Assembly (NCBI GenBank): GCA_002773985.1
Contig: PEZW01000018.1
Coordinates: 34,240-98,239, forward strand
Source of the DNA: Candidatus Berkelbacteria bacterium CG10_big_fil_rev_8_21_14_0_10_43_13
GTDB taxonomy: Bacteria > Patescibacteriota > UBA1384 > XYA2-FULL-43-10 > 1-14-0-10-43-13
DNA: 64,000 nt
Direction of reading: 5' to 3'
Shown: piece after piece, positions 5,754-35,348 of the stretch
How the letters are laid out: each line of letters starts with the position of its first letter
Numbering within the stretch: position 1 is the first letter of the stretch
The notes under the pieces: model-generated
What the model was told of the DNA's origin: nothing
The model's database searches: none
The model's input: only the letters and a program-made list of their open reading frames with translations
Made by a program: the position numbers and the translations under genes

Positions 5754-6046
5754 TTTATAAACTTTCCAACTTTATGAACTTTATGAACTAATCTAGTAAT
5801 AATTTATCACTTATTCAGTGCAAATTCAATTAAAAAAACGGCTTACACCGTTTAATTTTGGTGGTGTGTTTTAAATGAAGCTCGAACTTTTTTCGAACAA
5901 AATATTAAATAAATATTTTGGTTCCAATTTTGTAATGACCCGCTCGCGCTTCGCTCCCTAAATGTTGCAATGCGGTTCGGGCAAAAAGGAAGGGGTGTAG
6001 GGAGGGAATTTTTGCCCGATAACAGGTGGGGCGAGGGGGAGAAAAA

Positions 6047-7063
6047 TTAGTGACTTATCGGCAATTGCGGAAGTTCCTTTGCTTCGGCAATCATGCTGTT
6101 TCCAGTGATTATTTTACCTATTTCCATTCTAACAGTTTGTACATTATTGTGAATAGTGCAGTATATTTTATATCTATCCATCCAATTCTTATTATGATCT
6201 TTGATTTCCAAAAGCATCAAATTATATGCATCCTCTGCCTTACTCATTGCGTCTGACATATGAATTCTGAACTCACCTGTTTGCATATATTTTAGAATAG
6301 CTTTACCCTTTTCTTCTAACTTGTCTTTGGTCAGTTTTAATTTGTGCATTTCTAAAAGCGCGTTTCTAAGTAAAAAGGCAATATCAAGTAGGCCCATGGG
6401 GTCAATAATGATGATATCGTCTTCAATGAAAAATTTTGACTTTCCTTCTTTAATAGCATGAGTTACGATCACGGCATAATTCGCTTTTGCTTCTTCCTGA
6501 TGCCTTTTTACCTCATTGATAAATGAATTTTGATATGTCGCAGTCTTCTTGCATTCATACAAAATGCTACCAATATTCTCACCGTTATTTTTGATATATT
6601 GGATCGCATCACCTTTTTTTCCCGTTGGCCTAATCTCATCCTCAGGAAAGTTTTCCGTCAATAATTTAATAACTTCTTTTTCATAATCAAAACCAGCTGT
6701 TTGTGGAGTTCGTCCCTCTTTGAGTTGTTTCTCAAGAAGTGCGATTTTACCATTCGATACTTGTATTGCTTTCGCTTGGTTTTCGATTAATTTGCTCATC
6801 TTTTCTCTTTCGCGTTTTTCCTTTTCGACTCCTTGTTTAACACCGGATTCAAGCGCGAGTTTAGACATCTTTTTTAAATCGATTTTGTGCTTAGATTCCA
6901 AATCTAACTTTTCTTTTTTAGCTTTTTCAAGCTGTTTTTGGTTTTCCTTAATTTGTTTTTGCTGATCTTCCCACTGACCAACTATGGAAATCCATTTTTC
7001 CTTTGTCAAAATACTTTTGCACAAAGGACATAAAAAATCATTTTGCTGTTCGATGTTACTCAT
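6047..7063 (-). CDS. DUF2130-like coiled-coil protein with putative PD-(D/E)xK domain
   Basis: N-terminal CPLC, long coiled coil, then GD...GSILYECKKT motif. Confidence 0.65.
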   Translation of the reverse strand: MSNIEQQNDFLCPLCKSILTKEKWISIVGQWEDQQKQIKENQKQLEKAKKEKLDLESKHKIDLKKMSKLALESGVKQGVEKEKREREKMSKLIENQAKAIQVSNGKIALLEKQLKEGRTPQTAGFDYEKEVIKLLTENFPEDEIRPTGKKGDAIQYIKNNGENIGSILYECKKTATYQNSFINEVKRHQEEAKANYAVIVTHAIKEGKSKFFIEDDIIIIDPMGLLDIAFLLRNALLEMHKLKLTKDKLEEKGKAILKYMQTGEFRIHMSDAMSKAEDAYNLMLLEIKDHNKNWMDRYKIYCTIHNNVQTVRMEIGKIITGNSMIAEAKELPQLPISH

Positions 7064-7105
7064 AGTTTCCTCAATTCATTATTTAAGACCGTCCCTGTGC
7101 TTAAT

Positions 7106-7279
7106 CTAGTTTTTGGTTTTATCGACCAAAACATATACCTGACCTGCCTTTGGAGTGGGTGGAAGCGGCTCGCCCGTTACTACGGTGCGTTCCTTTCCGG
7201 TTTCTCCCCCTCTCGGACCAATAATTTCGTATTGGCCAGAGCGGGTGGCAGTTTGGCCGGGTTTGAAAGTCTGTTTCAT
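7106..7279 (-). CDS. Small YjzC-like protein (57 aa, absent from ORF track)
   Basis: GGAGG then ATG; MKQTFKPGQTATRSGQYEIIGPRGGETGKERTVVTGEPLPPTPKAGQVYVLVDKTKN has the FKPGQ.A..SG.Y / LPPT pattern. Confidence 0.8.
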   Translation of the reverse strand: MKQTFKPGQTATRSGQYEIIGPRGGETGKERTVVTGEPLPPTPKAGQVYVLVDKTKN

Positions 7280-7394
7280 GAGACCTCCAGTTTATTAATT
7301 AGGCAAGTTCGACATTCTTACCTGCTGATTTGCAGCCAGTCGTCATCTGCTCGCAGAGGTAAACAGGGGCGGTCTTACTAATTGTCAGGCCACT

Positions 7395-7446
7395 TGACAC
7401 TTTCCAAACGTTTTCGATATACTTAAAATGTAATCGAAAATAAATC
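7395..7446 (+). promoter_or_regulatory. Sigma70-type promoter of lexA-MTase overlapped by an inverted repeat (putative operator)
   Basis: TTGACA and TATACT boxes; ttttcgat...atcgaaaa dyad plus a further atcgaaa half-site. Confidence 0.5.
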
Positions 7447-7467
7447 GAAAGTCAAGAGGACAATCAA

Positions 7468-9012
7468 ATGCTCACCAAAAGACAAAAACAAACACTTGAG
7501 TTTATCAAGTCATACATCAAAAAAAATGATTTTGCTCCCTCCCTCGAAGAAATAAAAGCCCATTTAAAACTCTCGTCGGTCTCCACCGCACATCATCATG
7601 TTAAGGCTCTTGAAGATCAAGGCTATTTAAGAAAAGAAGATAATGTAGCTCGTGCCATTGATGTAGCTGAACCAGAACAAATGATTCAGATCCCAATAAT
7701 GGGTCTTATCGCGGCTGGTTTCCCTATCGAAGCTATTGAACAGCGAGAAACCATAGCAATACCAAAAACAAAATTACCAAAATCAGGTCAATTTTATGCA
7801 CTAAAAGTAGCTGGCAATAGTATGGTGGAAGAGAACATCAACGATGGAGACATCGTTGTAATAAAACAACAGGATCAGGTTGAAAATGGACAAAAAGCAG
7901 TCGCCTTGATAGACAATTCTGAGGTTACACTTAAAAAAATATATAAAGAGAAGTCATGTATTAGACTACAACCAGCAAACCATTTGGTGAAACCAATGTA
8001 TTATAATGCTGAAAGGGTTGCCATTCAAGGAATCTTGATTGATGTTGTTAGAAATACGCAAGAAGACTTTTCTGTTAATATTGATCTTAATAACACTTTA
8101 AACAATTCAGAATATATCCAACCGAATGCTATTATATGTGGGGATGCTTTGGATATGTTAAAAAAAATAAAACCAAACTCAATTGATTTAGTGCTTTCGG
8201 ATATACCTTATGGAATTTCACTAGATGAGTGGGATGTTCTTCATTCAAATACAAACTCGGCACTCTTAGGCCAATCTCCTGCCCAGATTGGAAAAAAAGC
8301 TTTTAAGAGGCGTGGCAAACCAATCAATGGGTGGTCAAGCGCTGACAAAAATATACCTCTTGAATACCAGCAGTGGTGCTACTCTTGGGGAAAAAAATTA
8401 TTTCCACTTGTTAAGGAGGGTGGTAGTGTTTTTATTTTTGGTGCTAGACGTACAATACATCGAGCTGTTATTGCACTAGAAGATAGCGGTTTTTTGGTAA
8501 GAGACGTACTGGCGTGGGAAAAACCAAACGCTCATCACCGAGCACAAAGTTTGAGTAAAATTTTTTATAACAGAGGATTATACGATGTCGGTGAAAAATG
8601 GGAAGGATGGAAACTAGGCAATTTAGCTCCGAAATATGAACCCATAGCCTGGCTTTTCAAACCATACAAGATTACAATTGCCGACAATGTGTTGAAAAAT
8701 AAACTTGGTGCTATGAATATTGAAGCATGTTTGATAGGTGGGAAATCCCCAACTAATATTTTAAGATATGGTTTCGATAAAAATGAGTCAGGGTTTCACG
8801 AGGCTCAGAAACCAGTGAAGCTATTAGAATACTTGATTAAACTCGTTACAATTAAAGGCCAAACTGTGCTGGATCCATTTATTGGCTCCGGGTCAACCCT
8901 AGTTGCAGCAAAACGATTAGACAGAAAATATATCGGCTTCGATAAATCAGATGAGTACTGTAAAATATCCAATCAACGAATAGATGAAGACAATCATGAT
9001 CCAGAGGTTTAA
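7468..9012 (+). CDS. LexA repressor fused to M.HindIII-like amino-DNA methyltransferase (beta class)
   Basis: Residues 1-195: LexA HTH, AAG cleavage site, GNSM and TLKK. C-terminal half: DIPY, HSNTNSAL, FKRRGKPINGWS, QKP, DPFIGSGST. Confidence 0.9.
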   Translation: MLTKRQKQTLEFIKSYIKKNDFAPSLEEIKAHLKLSSVSTAHHHVKALEDQGYLRKEDNVARAIDVAEPEQMIQIPIMGLIAAGFPIEAIEQRETIAIPKTKLPKSGQFYALKVAGNSMVEENINDGDIVVIKQQDQVENGQKAVALIDNSEVTLKKIYKEKSCIRLQPANHLVKPMYYNAERVAIQGILIDVVRNTQEDFSVNIDLNNTLNNSEYIQPNAIICGDALDMLKKIKPNSIDLVLSDIPYGISLDEWDVLHSNTNSALLGQSPAQIGKKAFKRRGKPINGWSSADKNIPLEYQQWCYSWGKKLFPLVKEGGSVFIFGARRTIHRAVIALEDSGFLVRDVLAWEKPNAHHRAQSLSKIFYNRGLYDVGEKWEGWKLGNLAPKYEPIAWLFKPYKITIADNVLKNKLGAMNIEACLIGGKSPTNILRYGFDKNESGFHEAQKPVKLLEYLIKLVTIKGQTVLDPFIGSGSTLVAAKRLDRKYIGFDKSDEYCKISNQRIDEDNHDPEV

Positions 9013-9022
9013 ATTGAAAATT

Positions 9023-9877
9023 TTATTTTAGTCCAGATATTTTTCTAATCTGAATTAGGCGATTATCAAGCTTCTCTGCCTTAATAAGTAACTCAATTGC
9101 TTTTTCTTTAGTTAGTGATGAAATTTCAGAAATTTTATTCTCGATATAAGCTATCTCTTCTTTCGCCATTCTTGTTAGCGCCACCTGCTCAACTTTTTTA
9201 AATCTACATAATTCTTTATTCGAAATCGAGAGAATTTTACAGATGGAGCTATCAATGGCTTTCCAATATAAGCTAGCATCTTTCTCCCCTTTGAGCTTTT
9301 CTCCTGATAGCCACAATCCCTTGTAGTCTAAGTTACCGCAATTGGGGCTAGACAATATGCAATATAAATGAATATATGAAAACAAAGTAACATTTTTTGC
9401 TGTTGCTTGTCTGTATATTTGACTACTATTTTTTGGGTACTGATACAGCGGCGATACAAGGCAAGCAAAGTCTTTATCTTTTTTCCATTTATCCAATGCT
9501 TCTACTTTAAAATCTTTTTGATTCTTTGCGGTTCTGCTTAATCTAAATAATTTAGCATCAGCGACTATTGTATAGTTTTTTGTTTCACCCTCAACATCTG
9601 CAGAGTCTGCTCTTTCTTTCAAGACTTTTGCGTTTAAACCCATAAATGAAAGCGCCCTCGCTAATAAAACATCAGAATACTTGGAGTATATTTTTTCCTC
9701 AGTCGAATCGTGTGAAAATGACTCAGGAATAATACCGCACTCAAGAAGATGAAGCATAACTTCTTCTTTGGTAAACTTCTCGACTATTGAGATTATCCTT
9801 TCACTATACTCAGTAAAAGAAAGTGGCTCATCAGAAATTTTAGAAATAAAATTTATAATTTCAATTCTTTTCATCAA
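9023..9877 (-). CDS. Type II restriction endonuclease, HindIII family
   Basis: HDSTEEKIYSK..D, ER.DSADV, ADAK.FRLSRTAKNQKDFKV; convergent with the cognate MTase. Confidence 0.88.
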   Translation of the reverse strand: MMKRIEIINFISKISDEPLSFTEYSERIISIVEKFTKEEVMLHLLECGIIPESFSHDSTEEKIYSKYSDVLLARALSFMGLNAKVLKERADSADVEGETKNYTIVADAKLFRLSRTAKNQKDFKVEALDKWKKDKDFACLVSPLYQYPKNSSQIYRQATAKNVTLFSYIHLYCILSSPNCGNLDYKGLWLSGEKLKGEKDASLYWKAIDSSICKILSISNKELCRFKKVEQVALTRMAKEEIAYIENKISEISSLTKEKAIELLIKAEKLDNRLIQIRKISGLK

Positions 9878-10079
9878 AAAGATCCTTTATATTTAATTTA
9901 AGAGATTTAGAAATTTTTTCAATATTCTCCAAGGTTATATTCTTCTCCGCTCTCTCAATCATCCCGATGTAAGTCCGGTGAACACCAGCAAAACCGGCAA
10001 GCTGCTCTTGCGATAGACCTTTCTTCAATCTTTCTTCGCGAACTTTGTCGCCAAATTTTTTTAGAATTTCTTTTTTCAT
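9861..10079 (-). CDS. R-M controller (C) protein, XRE HTH
   Basis: LSQEQLA...HRTYIGMIERAEKNITL; overlaps the REase start. Confidence 0.88.
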   Translation of the reverse strand: MKKEILKKFGDKVREERLKKGLSQEQLAGFAGVHRTYIGMIERAEKNITLENIEKISKSLKLNIKDLFDEKN

Positions 10080-10100
10080 ACAGATTAAATATACAGATAT

Positions 10101-10134
10101 TGCTAACTTTAGTTCTACATACTATAGTTAGCAT
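10101..10134 (-). promoter_or_regulatory. Putative C-box operator
   Basis: Dyad tgctaact...agttagca about 20 bp upstream of the C-protein start. Confidence 0.55.
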
Positions 10135-10347
10135 ATAAAAAGATAAACAAAAGGGGTTTCACTGTCTTTCGCGCGGCGGGAGGGAGGGCAAGTGAAAGTA
10201 AATAATCCGCCCCGCCCACAAAAAGCCCTACTTCGCTGAAGCTACGAAGGAGGCGCCGAGAGCGTGCGCATTCCCTCCCCATACCCCTCATTGCTCACAC
10301 CGAATAAAATTTAGAGCAAATAAAAAACGGCTTACACCGTTTAATTT

Positions 10348-10380
10348 TGGTGGACCCTAGGAGACTCGAACTCCTGACCT
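10348..10380 (-). pseudogene. 3' fragment of an older tRNA-Ala (T-arm, acceptor 3' strand, CCA)
   Basis: Reverse complement aggtcaggagttcgagtctcctagggtccacca. Confidence 0.85.
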
Positions 10381-10414
10381 AGCCGATAGATCGGCTCGCG
10401 AATTTGTTTTTATT

Positions 10415-10491
10415 TGGTGGACCTGACCGGGCTTGAACCGGTGACCTCCTCGCTGCCAGCGAGGCGCTCTAGCCAACTGAGCTACAGGCCC
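10415..10491 (-). tRNA. tRNA-Ala(GGC)
   Basis: Full cloverleaf gggcctg...caggtcc-acca; anticodon arm cctcg-ctGGCag-cgagg. Confidence 0.96.
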
Positions 10492-10511
10492 ATTAAAGAA
10501 AAACAAATGGC

Positions 10512-10530
10512 CCAACTAAGCTAAGGGCCC
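10512..10530 (-). pseudogene. 5' fragment of the older tRNA-Ala
   Basis: gggcccttagcttagttgg; GGGCCCT pairs with AGGGTCC of the 10348-10380 fragment. Confidence 0.75.
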
Positions 10531-10645
10531 AATGTTGTCTGAATACAATTCTAGCACAAAAATCGTCAATCGAGAAGAGCATTGAAGTGCGTTGATTGAT
10601 TTCTGTTTTGCGATATAATAATGACATACTTATTTTGGAGGGAAT

Positions 10646-11839
10646 ATGCCGGATCAGGGGATACTAGAATATATCCGTGCCGAGAAGGCGCGTGGTGTCG
10701 ATGCTGAGACAACAAGAAACGAACTCTTGAAAGCCGGCTGGAAGGTCAGTGATATTGAGGTCGCTTTTCGTGCTATGACACCGGAGCCGACCGTAGAGAG
10801 TCACCCGACTGCCGTGACGGCTACTGATTTTTCGAAACTTACCGAACACAAACCATCACCAACAACGATCGCCTTGCAATCAGTTCCGAAATTCAAGTCG
10901 AAGAGATTGATCTTCGAGCTGTTTGCCGTGATCCTGATAGTTCTAGCCGGCGGGGGAATCACTTATGGATATTATTATCACCTCTCACCTTATCTGGTAC
11001 TGAACAAAAGTATGGGCAAGTTATCTGAAGTCAAGACCTTTGAATATTCTCTCACAATCTCAAACACTGACACATCAAACAAATATGACAACTTCACTCT
11101 ACAGTCCAGAGGCGTCGAAGATATCACTGATTTGAATAACACCAAAAGCTCGATCACTCTGAGTGGCACTTCGGCCGATGATAGCACCTTTACCAATCCG
11201 ATCGGATTTCAAATTGATTACCGCAACATTAGCCACAATATTTACGCCAAAGTAGACAAACTTGATGGACTCGAAGACCTGGCTGCGCCCATCTTCGATA
11301 AATGGATTAAGTTTGATTTAACTCCGATCAAGGAGCAATATGATCTCGACAAAGTTGACGAGCCAGTAGCTGGCAGTAAGGATGCATCCAAGATTTCGTC
11401 TGATCAGAAAGATAAATTGTATAAAGCGCTGAAGGCCGATAAAGTCTTTGACTTTTCAGAAAGATTGCTCAATGAAAAAGTAAATGGTGTCGATGCAACT
11501 CACTATCAAATCACTCTGAACAAAGAAGGTTTTCTAGAATTTTACACCGACGCCGCAAAAATTCTGTTTGACAGAGAGTTTACAAACAATGATATCAAAT
11601 CTATGAGGCAAGATTTACGAGTAATTAATTCCGCCGACATAGAGATTTGGATCGGCAAGAATGACTCACTGCCATATAAAATAGTCGGATCATCGCAAAT
11701 CGTCGATCCCAAGACATCTAAAATCACCGGCAGCTCGACCCTGACGCTGAATTTCAAGAATTTCAACAAATCGGTCACTGTCGCAACTCCTACCGATACA
11801 ATTTCGTTCGAAGAAGCCTTCGGCCTTCTCTTCAAGTAA
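10646..11839 (+). CDS. Membrane-anchored hypothetical protein
   Basis: Short N-terminal domain (ILEYIR...LLKAGW), one TM helix, beta-rich extracellular domain. Confidence 0.75.
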   Translation: MPDQGILEYIRAEKARGVDAETTRNELLKAGWKVSDIEVAFRAMTPEPTVESHPTAVTATDFSKLTEHKPSPTTIALQSVPKFKSKRLIFELFAVILIVLAGGGITYGYYYHLSPYLVLNKSMGKLSEVKTFEYSLTISNTDTSNKYDNFTLQSRGVEDITDLNNTKSSITLSGTSADDSTFTNPIGFQIDYRNISHNIYAKVDKLDGLEDLAAPIFDKWIKFDLTPIKEQYDLDKVDEPVAGSKDASKISSDQKDKLYKALKADKVFDFSERLLNEKVNGVDATHYQITLNKEGFLEFYTDAAKILFDREFTNNDIKSMRQDLRVINSADIEIWIGKNDSLPYKIVGSSQIVDPKTSKITGSSTLTLNFKNFNKSVTVATPTDTISFEEAFGLLFK

Positions 11840-29245: not shown

Positions 29246-29288
29246 GCCGAAGTGCCTGCCTGCCGGCAGGCAGGGCGGAATTGGTATA
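29246..29288 (+). pseudogene. 5' fragment of an older tRNA-Leu, interrupted by a 20-bp palindrome
   Basis: gccgaagtg[cctgcctgccggcaggcagg]gcggaattggtata, preceded by TTGCGA-17-TATTAT. Confidence 0.85.
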
Positions 29289-29299
29289 ACCTATTATAT

Positions 29300-29539
29300 A
29301 TGTATTTTGTCTATGTATTAAAAAGTACAAAAAGGAATTATCATTATATTGGTATTAGCAATAATTTATCTCGAAGAATAAATCAACACAACAAGGGTTA
29401 CAACAAAACAACTAAGCCTTACACACCTTTTAAATTAATTTACAGTGAAAAGTACCCTGACCGTGTCTCAGCCAGAACTAGAGAAAAACAATTAAAAAGT
29501 GGTTGCGGTCGTGAATTTATTCGAAAAATAGATATTTAA
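29300..29539 (+). CDS. Minimal stand-alone GIY-YIG nuclease (79 aa)
   Basis: YFVYVLKS...YIG.S.NL.RR..QHN.G...A..RE..LK motif set. Confidence 0.92.
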   Translation: MYFVYVLKSTKRNYHYIGISNNLSRRINQHNKGYNKTTKPYTPFKLIYSEKYPDRVSARTREKQLKSGCGREFIRKIDI

Positions 29540-29569
29540 ATAATTTGATTAGCGTCTTGTTCATTTTGG

Positions 29570-29655
29570 GCCGCGGTGGCGGAATTGGTATACGCGTACG
29601 ACTCAAAATCGTATTCCCTCAAGGAATGTGGGTTCGATTCCCACCCGCGGCACCA
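29570..29655 (+). tRNA. tRNA-Leu(CAA)
   Basis: gccgcgg...ccgcggc-acca; anticodon arm tacga-ctCAAaa-tcgta; long variable arm. Confidence 0.96.
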
Positions 29656-29668
29656 AATGAATAAGAAT

Positions 29669-29769
29669 CGCACGACCTGTCTGCCGACAGGCAGGCTCAA
29701 AATCGTGTGGCCTCGTGCCTTATGGGTCTGCCTGTCGGTAGACAGGTTCAAATCCCACCTTCGGTACCA
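29669..29769 (+). pseudogene. 3' part of the older tRNA-Leu(CAA), interrupted by two 20-bp palindromes
   Basis: cgcacga[20 bp]ctcaaaatcgtgtggcctcgtgccttatggg[20 bp]ttcaaatcccaccttcggtacca; CTTCGGT pairs with GCCGAAG at 29246. Confidence 0.88.
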
Positions 29770-34360: not shown

Positions 34361-34891
34361 ATGGTGGACGAGGAAATGAAAGAGAAAAAAACAAACGAAT
34401 CTGAATATAATAAGATGAATCAGGAAAAAATGCACTACTATCGTCATCAGTATGGTCCGTTTGGAATGATTTTTGGTGTGCTAATTTTCTTGCTAATTCT
34501 CGGTGGTGTTTTTGCACTCGGCAGAGGATCAAGCCGACATTACGCTTATGGGAGTTTTGGTAAAATAGCGGGCACTGAAGCTAGCTATGGCGGCGGCGGA
34601 ATGATGAGGGGATATGGACGACATCGCGTGATTGATGGCGATGAGAACACCATCTCTGGTTATCGAAATAGAATTGCGGGACAGATTAGTACGGTCAATT
34701 CCGACAACATCGTCATAAAAGACACTGACGGCACCGCCTACACCGTCAAAATTGCCTCAGATACCTCAGTGGTTATTAACGGCAAGATCGACAAAGCCAG
34801 TAACCTTAAAGCCAGCAGTGAAGTCATCGTTGTCGGCGACTCAAACAGTGACGGCAGTATCAACGCAACAATCATCCGTAGTTTGCAATGA
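34361..34891 (+). CDS. Membrane protein with C-terminal DUF5666-like domain
   Basis: TM helix, Gly-rich linker, IAGQI..V...IVIK...V.V.G....GSINA..I. Confidence 0.7.
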
Positions 34892-35230
34892 AGCTCCCCA
34901 CGGCCAAGCCGTCGGGCACATGCTGCCAAACTACTCAAACAGGCTGGCATAACCGATGACAAATTTTTACGCAAACCGACCAGACTATCTGGCGGTGAGC
35001 AGCAACGTGTTGCAATTGCCAGGGCGCTGGCAAACAATCCAAAATTAATTTTAGCTGACGAACCGACAGGTAATCTCGATTCGGCTACCGGGCAAATTGT
35101 TATTAATTTGCTCAAAAGCTTGGCGAAAACCGAGAACACAACTATACTCGCTGTTACTCACGATAACGGTGTTGCCGATCAAGCCGAAAGAACTTTCCGC
35201 CTCAAAGACGGCAGGCTTGTTTCGTCGTAA
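34892..35230 (+). pseudogene. C-terminal half of a LolD/MacB-type ABC ATPase (no start, no Walker A)
   Basis: Hand translation [33 protein letters not shown]...VTHD...LKDGRL*. Confidence 0.88.
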
Positions 35231-35348
35231 CTGTTGTCATTTCGACCGATGTGGTTTCAAAAGCGGAGAAACATCACAAAAAAACACTATGACCTGAGTT
35301 ATTTTTTTGCTAAAATATTAACATCAACCATAGTTACTTCCTGCGGTA

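Follow-up and report, generated by a model that had tools for sequence, protein, structure and literature searches.

The window analysed here is a stretch of 64,000 nucleotides from a Candidatus Berkelbacteria genome of 838 kb (28 contigs, 43 intron-free tRNA calls and one tmRNA). On its minus strand, at positions 10348 to 10530, an intact tRNA-Ala(GGC) gene lies within a second, split tRNA-Ala gene, and each part that had been proposed by a sequence-only reading was found in its place. Read 5' to 3' along the minus strand, the locus opens with the 5' piece of the outer, dead tRNA-Ala (10512..10530), which holds tRNA positions 1-19, that is, the acceptor 5' strand, the D-stem 5' strand and the D-loop up to G18-G19. 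After 3 bases comes the left arm of an inverted repeat (10499..10508) and after another 7 the inner tRNA-Ala(GGC) (10415..10491; called by ARAGORN, 65.6 bits with Rfam RF00005), the only Ala(GGC) gene called in the assembly. The right arm of the repeat (10402..10411) follows 3 bases further on and is the perfect 10-bp complement of the left one (10508-10499 / 10411-10402), as had been claimed. A spacer of 5 bases ending in GCG (10397..10399) leads to a palindromic 16-bp hairpin with a two-base centre (10396-10381; 10381..10396), and this runs directly into the 33-nt 3' piece of the outer gene (10348..10380; positions 44-76: variable loop, T arm, acceptor 3' strand and ACCA). An intrinsic-terminator-like hairpin, recognised by consensus match only, stands 3' of this piece on the same strand (10318..10342).

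The two outer pieces pair with each other as proposed: the outer acceptor closes with 7/7 pairs, including G3:U70, and A73-CCA is present. Relatives have GAGCG before the hairpin, and by this comparison the GCG is assigned to the remnant of outer positions 24-26, the end of the D-stem 3' strand. The outer gene has lost positions 20-23, and 131 bases stand in for positions 20-43. The hairpin, of the type xxCCGAY-n-RTCGGxx that tags one clade of GIY-YIG nucleases, sits between the D-stem 3' strand and the variable loop, which is the exact place of positions 27-43. The outer anticodon arm had been described as missing; it is indeed absent, but it has been swapped for the palindrome and is not simply gone. 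No nuclease gene was found at the locus, in line with the earlier reading, the insert holds no integrase ORF, and a promoter scan gave no minus-strand site.

In the predicted fold of the locus both tRNA-like bodies are kept. The inverted repeat continues the inner acceptor helix in register (14/17 positions pair outward from -1/73), and a score of 10 for the repeat was reached in 17/5000 spacer shuffles. Pairing of the inner acceptor was 0.997 in the native sequence vs a mean of 0.952 over 200 spacer shuffles, with no cross-pairing to the shell; a requirement of the repeat for folding of the inner tRNA is unsupported by these shuffles. Repeat scores of at least 9 occur around 6/10 tRNAs that have the hairpin behind them vs 15/180 others, 13 of these 15 being remodelled loci by eye; the Fisher p of 1e-4 for this association is an overstatement, since kin are not independent and 2/10 of the tRNAs precede the 5' copy of the next gene. 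Archaeal tRNA introns, split or permuted tRNAs and bacterial group I introns likewise show a fragmented tRNA gene whose insert folds out, and here the repeat would extrude the insert and leave a tRNA-like fold around it. That the insert is intron-like and spliced to yield a working outer tRNA is nonetheless a very remote prospect: its removal leaves a tRNA without positions 20-23 and without an anticodon loop, which cannot be restored to a decoding tRNA, no Rfam intron family matches at E <= 1, and no such joint occurs in DNA contigs of four public runs.

Alleles, assembly and the neighbouring island

The outer pieces (19 + 33 nt) were compared with 62 distinct Ala tRNA genes. They are identical at 52/52 bases to the intact tRNA-Ala(GGC) of G009, a genome of the same family, and match two Ala(TGC) genes at 50/52. 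The 3' piece is 33/33 identical to the G009 gene, and the 5' piece is 19/19 identical to the same gene and also to the Ala(TGC) genes of G008 and G015. G3:U70 and A73 are alanine identity elements. By these matches, the outer gene was certainly an alanine gene and likely of the GGC isoacceptor. The inner gene shares 39/52 of these positions with the outer one and differs at 13/52; its nearest relative among the 62 is the gene of G004 (48/52 compared positions). As a chance control, tRNA-fragment matches were found in 0/860 random genome windows.

The outer gene had been taken as the older, resident one, a view that holds up: it is this gene that has the upstream flank, the terminator and the leuS-side end. 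The leuS gene lies inside the fetched flank at 19/60 other Ala(GGC) loci, in either orientation. The locus is thus probably the usual site of Ala(GGC), with native ends that appear to belong to the shell and not to the inner gene. The only genome of the same genus (71% complete) has no Ala(GGC) match to indicate the native allele of the lineage. Among relatives, tRNA-Ala(GGC) and leuS occur in both relative orientations, so that the tRNA has flipped with respect to leuS at least once.

Contigs from public sequencing runs match both sides of the structure without differences (X1 over 10324-10493 and 10465-10609; X2 over 10463-11400), with the qualification that X1 may be the source sample and that no single listed contig covers all 183 bases. 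Contigs of four public runs contain no joint that removes the insert or the neighbouring 4.5-kb island; public-run joints across 10378-10473 have other anticodon arms and are read as ordinary tRNAs from other organisms. An assembly chimera over tRNA repeats would fit the absence of a listed contig spanning the full structure, and the fact that the two X1 pieces share just 29 bases, within the inner tRNA. Against this, complementary repeat arms and complementary acceptor strands are carried on opposite sides of the supposed joint, depths of 15.6 and 22.4 resemble those of the flanks (21-23), and the same layout is present in three other genomes; we give the chimera next to no weight.

The 3' end of the shell doubles as the boundary of an island. 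A 32-bp direct repeat on the minus strand covers the outer CCACCA and the terminator (10322..10353), and its second copy (5833..5864), 80 bases before leuS, closes an island of 4.5 kb, which includes a HindIII-type restriction-modification set. Between these perfect repeats (window 5833-10353) lie a HTH regulator, a HindIII-type endonuclease, a LexA-methyltransferase fusion, YjzC and DUF2130. This island is a separate, ordinary event, distinct from the nested tRNA. It does show that the site is used by ordinary islands, and partial tRNA copies from integration are described as common (PMC9897764), as would be expected if the two outer pieces were leftovers of two separate integrase events (attL/attR) beside a live tRNA. 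Islands of this kind, as presented in that source, resemble the locus in targeting a tRNA gene and keeping a working copy (PMC9897764). They differ in having an integrase, whereas here there is none, both a 5' and a 3' piece remain, and the functional gene, complete and of a different allele, is lodged within the old one: the two partial pieces are only 39/52 identical to the live gene. No integrase domain was detected in the five island proteins scanned, and the same hairpin accompanies this layout in other isotypes. Both observations largely refute an origin in two ordinary attL/attR events, which we hold to be very improbable.

The hairpin and its nuclease clade

The exact form of the hairpin was found in arm position in 7/162 genomes of the class, including this one, within dead copies of Ala(GGC), Ala(TGC), Val, Asp and Arg genes. 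Its general form, xxCCGAY-n-RTCGGxx between the same flanks, occurs in 22/401 sampled genomes of the phylum; reversed-pattern controls gave 0 in both searches. Exact or general, the arm-position hairpin lies in Ala, Val, Asp, Arg and Pro copies, and its flanks GAGCG and AGGTC are the tRNA's own positions 22-26 and 44-48. Statistics were drawn from 30 fetched loci, that is, 33 distinct matches. The four unconstrained outer bases of the hairpin form 61 Watson-Crick and 3 G-U pairs in 66 cells, a called tRNA lies at most 650 nt from 30/33 hairpins (in two, the tRNA is the match itself), and a GIY-YIG gene lies within the same distance of 15/33, leaving 18/33 with no nuclease nearby. A pattern scan of genome contigs, too loose to give a count beyond the phylum, returned at least 120 loci, with a T arm after the palindrome in 3/120 among the matches listed.

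Among 43 hairpins, centres of 2, 3, 4, 5 and 6 bases number 8, 2, 20, 5 and 8. The three-base centre that would restore a normal anticodon loop is thus a rarity (2/43), and one of the exceptions is the complete tRNA-Ala(GGC) of locus L243 (see below). This rarity could be taken to favour a shell kept at work, as a two-piece, anticodon-less alanine acceptor comparable to the tRNA-like domain of tmRNA, serving as a decoy or an alanine carrier once the inner tRNA has been excised. The shell at our locus has an intact acceptor, G3:U70, A73, CCA and T arm (predicted pairing probability 0.93) and its 52/52 identity with a live gene, and it shares with tmRNA an alanine acceptor with G3:U70, a T arm and the lack of an anticodon. 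However, it has no tag reading frame, the tmRNA model matches only a 10.5-bit T-arm scrap (gathering score 47), a normal tmRNA is present on contig C22, the layout is found for many amino acids, and the shells of relatives are often decayed, unpaired or without CCA (G013, G014, G037). A working shell is hence quite improbable.

Six copies of the AGCCGAT form are present in this genome, three of them in arm position (at the Ala locus, in an Asp copy on contig C6 and in an Arg-type copy at the end of C12). The Arg(CCG)-type dead copy (C12, positions 1-90) runs off the contig end into what appears to be the start of a GIY-YIG frame. The other three copies (C9:69601, C9:73056 and C28:5882) lie away from tRNAs, inside the loop of a stem-loop repeat of the GTCATTGCGAG type; similar GTCATT repeats border another GIY-YIG gene at Leu(TAA) on C27. 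Because the same hairpin recurs inside a non-tRNA stem-loop at these 3 sites, it appears to move on its own. A complete, canonical-looking tRNA-Ala(GGC) in another genome (locus L243, G298) carries an anticodon arm of its own of the hairpin type, and the hairpin may thus derive from a real anticodon arm. Elsewhere, a dead copy of Pro type is whole and unsplit and receives a Val call from ARAGORN (L245, G485), and a tRNA-Asp cassette is followed by four dead, hairpin-bearing 3' copies in tandem (L260, G459), suggestive of amplification. Outside the genome sets, the exact hairpin with flanks matched 3 metagenome stretches and 0 viral stretches, and the general form matched 15 viral stretches, of which 2 are real cassettes with GIY-YIG gene and tRNA, 1 is a plain tRNA and the rest are apparently chance matches. 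The two cassettes (viral-collection contigs L281 and L282) carry hairpin shells, a GIY-YIG gene and a tRNA (Pro and Ala-GGC); prophage flanks or a viral vehicle are possible.

A tree of 53 GIY-YIG proteins includes 16 whose genes are preceded by an arm-position hairpin; all of these belong to a single clade with 26 members (support 97/97), and the 27 proteins outside it include none. The sample was enriched by our own queries, the alignment has 86 columns and kin share labels, so that the informative part of this result is the absence of the hairpin outside the clade; 3 members of the hairpin-tied clade carry no hairpin label. A second type of hairpin, a different, double one inserted in the D-loop at 17/18 of Ala copies (L227, L235, L021 and contig C19 of this genome, ~1590-1970), goes with a GIY-YIG clade of its own (4/4 proteins, support 100/100). 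The hairpin-linked nucleases are 85-90 aa long and belong to Pfam GIY-YIG PF01541. Their closest solved structures are the UPF0213 proteins 1zg2 and 1ywl, and they score 21-25 bits with TIGR01453, vs a cut-off of 56. UPF0213 proteins have been assigned to the bacterial Slx1 family, paralogous to homing endonucleases, in the account cited (PMC1564403).

The nuclease-bearing form exists at tRNA-Ala(GGC) itself, which agrees with the proposal that our locus is a non-autonomous case. In G013, a genome of the same family, the locus reads, in order, dead positions 1-26, hairpin, 44-51, a GIY-YIG gene of 86 aa, the live tRNA, 22-26, the same hairpin again, and 44-76; a related cassette is found at L114. 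Of 30 loci returned across the phylum for the G013 nuclease, 28 have a tRNA beside the gene; in this genome, a tRNA is at most 40 nt away from 10 of the 12 small GIY-YIG matches. On contig C6 (~34790-35245, L170), a tRNA-Asp cassette encodes an intact GIY-YIG member of the clade (gene at ~34850-35110) with an AGCCGAT-n-ATCGGCT hairpin upstream, a candidate for an enzyme acting in trans; its dead copy equals the live gene over positions 1-26, and a 23-point inverted repeat surrounds the live tRNA.

Comparison of these loci shows that, in dead copies of many isotypes, the hairpin stands precisely where the anticodon arm belongs, and that it travels with one nuclease clade. The same comparison shows the full form to consist of a dead 5' copy, the nuclease gene and a live tRNA, with or without a dead 3' copy, and gene-less forms to be common.

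Recurrence, breakpoints and proposed mechanism

Nesting is repeated elsewhere in this genome, where six of the 43 tRNA genes appear nested by eye (Ala, Leu-CAA, Lys-CTT, Phe, Trp and Pro-CGG). A strict BLAST for shell pieces flagged 14/43 tRNA windows (10 distinct, 4 neighbour repeats), which is an undercount in that the Leu-CAA shell was missed; low-threshold ARAGORN with introns gave 779 calls, mostly spurious, and was dropped. The nested, nuclease-free layout with this type of hairpin is also present at Val(GAC) in G004 and Arg(GCG) in G487, and with another hairpin at Ala-GGC in G126. Among 60 other Ala(GGC) loci (59 class genomes), 6 have a GIY-YIG gene and a dead 5' piece upstream (one gene being broken), 1 has only a 5' stub and 1 is the nested, nuclease-free locus of G126. 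Since the other 52/60 are plain by the pattern test, 9 of these 52 having <100 bases of flank on one side, the remodelled state of Ala(GGC) is the minority one. Downstream of Ser-GCT, Arg-CCT and Trp (contigs C12, C22 and C24), a shared spacer of ~120 bases followed by a short copy of a tRNA 3' end marks a different repeated element.

The sequence-only reading had proposed a recurrent mechanism of tRNA replacement, with a break fixed just after the GG of the D-loop and one architecture common to both tRNA loci of the window. The recurrence stands, in the six genes here and in G004, G487 and G126, and replacement as its mechanism remains an interpretation. The fixed breakpoint does not: the break lies in the D-loop for Ala, Leu-CAA (after GGTATA) and Lys-CTT (before the GG), and in the anticodon arm for the other three, Phe, Trp and Pro-CGG. 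Nor do the two loci represent one element. The comparison locus (29246..29769, plus strand) holds a tRNA-Leu(CAA) in a split Leu gene with a GIY-YIG nuclease of 79 aa, which falls outside the hairpin-tied clade, indeed outside both hairpin-associated clades, and its 20-bp palindrome is different.

Our preferred reading as a whole, to which we assign a probability of roughly two in three, is that the tRNA-Ala locus is the non-autonomous, nuclease-free scar of a nuclease-plus-hairpin element that replaces tRNA genes. The selfish element would consist of a Slx1-like GIY-YIG nuclease and its own short hairpin. The nuclease would nick tRNA-gene DNA where this is folded into arms (single-stranded or cruciform), and the break would be repaired from a donor carrying inverted repeat, live tRNA, inverted repeat, GAGCG, hairpin and variable loop. 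The resident tRNA-Ala(GGC) beside leuS would in this way have lost positions 20-43 and gained a live tRNA-Ala(GGC) of another allele. Such a swap may be free of cost to the cell, as a live gene of the same isoacceptor is delivered, and the resident promoter side, acceptor, T arm and terminator would remain as the outer shell. The inverted repeat would be a footprint of fold-back repair or of the ends of the mobile unit, and not a folding aid. RNase P and 3' trimming excise tRNAs from shared transcripts, and the inner tRNA would be released from the shared transcript in the same manner. Action in trans is possible, because the genome encodes the intact clade member at tRNA-Asp with the same hairpin upstream.

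The exact steps of nicking and donor repair are proposed tentatively, at somewhat below even odds. In four nested cases the left piece ends a few bases from the start of the right piece (~15-24), whereas simple gene-loss derivatives at several loci keep the left hairpin; the pattern speaks for an insertion at the D-loop rather than a deletion from a G013-type cassette. In fresh cassettes the inner gene is identical to the shell over positions 1-26, so that an enzyme cutting normal tRNA genes would also cut the inner gene, a point that counts against the scheme.

The chief alternative is that nicks were followed by duplication and template switching in place, a break-induced process without homing: a nick made nearby by a tRNA-adjacent nuclease would let template-switch repair scramble the tRNA pieces and turn an arm into a palindrome in place, the nested form being a by-product and no transfer between genomes taking place. 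Tandem dead copies (4 in G459; 2 each in G008 and G399), a hairpin in G507 that has its 3' half in common with the Val(CAC) arm next to it, and the whole tRNA with a hairpin-type arm at L243 are all consistent with it, and the amplification of tRNA genes driven by SegB, as presented in the cited source, offers a precedent (PMC13096335). Yet the same hairpin core is shared by isotypes with unlike arms of their own, it also occurs outside tRNAs, and the inner and outer genes differ at 13/52 positions while the outer one equals an intact gene of a relative. We consider local duplication unlikely, and return to replacement by a nuclease-linked element as the preferred reading, in which a family of very small nuclease genes seems to invade tRNA genes of ultra-small bacteria and to take their place.

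Relation to known systems and significance

The nested, hairpin-tagged layout is real and recurrent. No description of tRNA-in-tRNA cassettes or anticodon-arm hairpins is found among the full-text literature matches listed, a body of text that leaves subscription journals mostly outside, and the layout is apparently undescribed.

The nearest system is SegB of phages T4/T6, described in the cited accounts as a free-standing GIY-YIG homing endonuclease of phage tRNA clusters that recognises a T-loop motif in double-stranded phage DNA (PMC2330249; PMC13096335). As in our case, a GIY-YIG gene lies beside tRNA genes of many isotypes and, in those accounts, spreads or amplifies them by cutting tRNA-gene DNA (PMC2330249; PMC13096335). 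A GIY-YIG gene in or beside the element is lacking at the tRNA-Ala locus and present in the full cassettes of relatives and in the tRNA-Asp candidate. Unlike SegB as there described, the partner here is a chromosomal, stand-alone domain of Slx1 type that goes with split tRNA shells and a clade-specific hairpin, and the partner proteins, 84-88 aa long, do not belong to the I-TevI/Seg lineage with its long DNA-binding C-terminal part.

REP/RAYT systems (REPtrons) and CGTC-tagged palindromes, as set out in the cited source, resemble the element in combining a palindrome with a dedicated small enzyme, in non-autonomous copies and in insertion into stem-loops (PMC3733652). In the same account, RAYTs are HUH tyrosine transposases, REPs end in GTAG, and CGTC repeats lack a known transposase (PMC3733652); here it is a GIY-YIG gene, a term that occurs nowhere in that source, that stands beside the hairpins, with no GTAG (or CGTC) tag. 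As in REPtrons, the palindrome is conserved in structure (61 + 3 of 66 cells) and has scattered non-autonomous copies (6 copies, 3 outside tRNAs). The difference is that the hairpin here replaces a tRNA arm and that the cassette carries a whole tRNA.

A tentative further reading is an undescribed class of mobile elements, an idea that we rate at a little less than an even chance. In it, stand-alone bacterial Slx1-like nucleases, each clade with a hairpin and a cloverleaf position of its own, would edit tRNA genes arm for arm in the DNA itself, deliver a tRNA for the same amino acid and move alleles between lineages. As one defined hairpin goes with one defined nuclease clade, the idea lends itself to direct testing. 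For annotation, dead shells can be miscalled, as in the Val call by ARAGORN for L245. If the class is real, it would suggest a function for the UPF0213 proteins, so far uncharacterised, and provide a candidate mobiliser for orphan palindromic repeats. If the nuclease-linked reading is right, an enzyme of 85 residues would recognise DNA by its folded shape and rewrite a single arm. A selfish nuclease-plus-hairpin system, free of integrases and introns, would then turn over the tRNA genes of small genomes, which bears on the assumption that tRNA alleles track the species tree.
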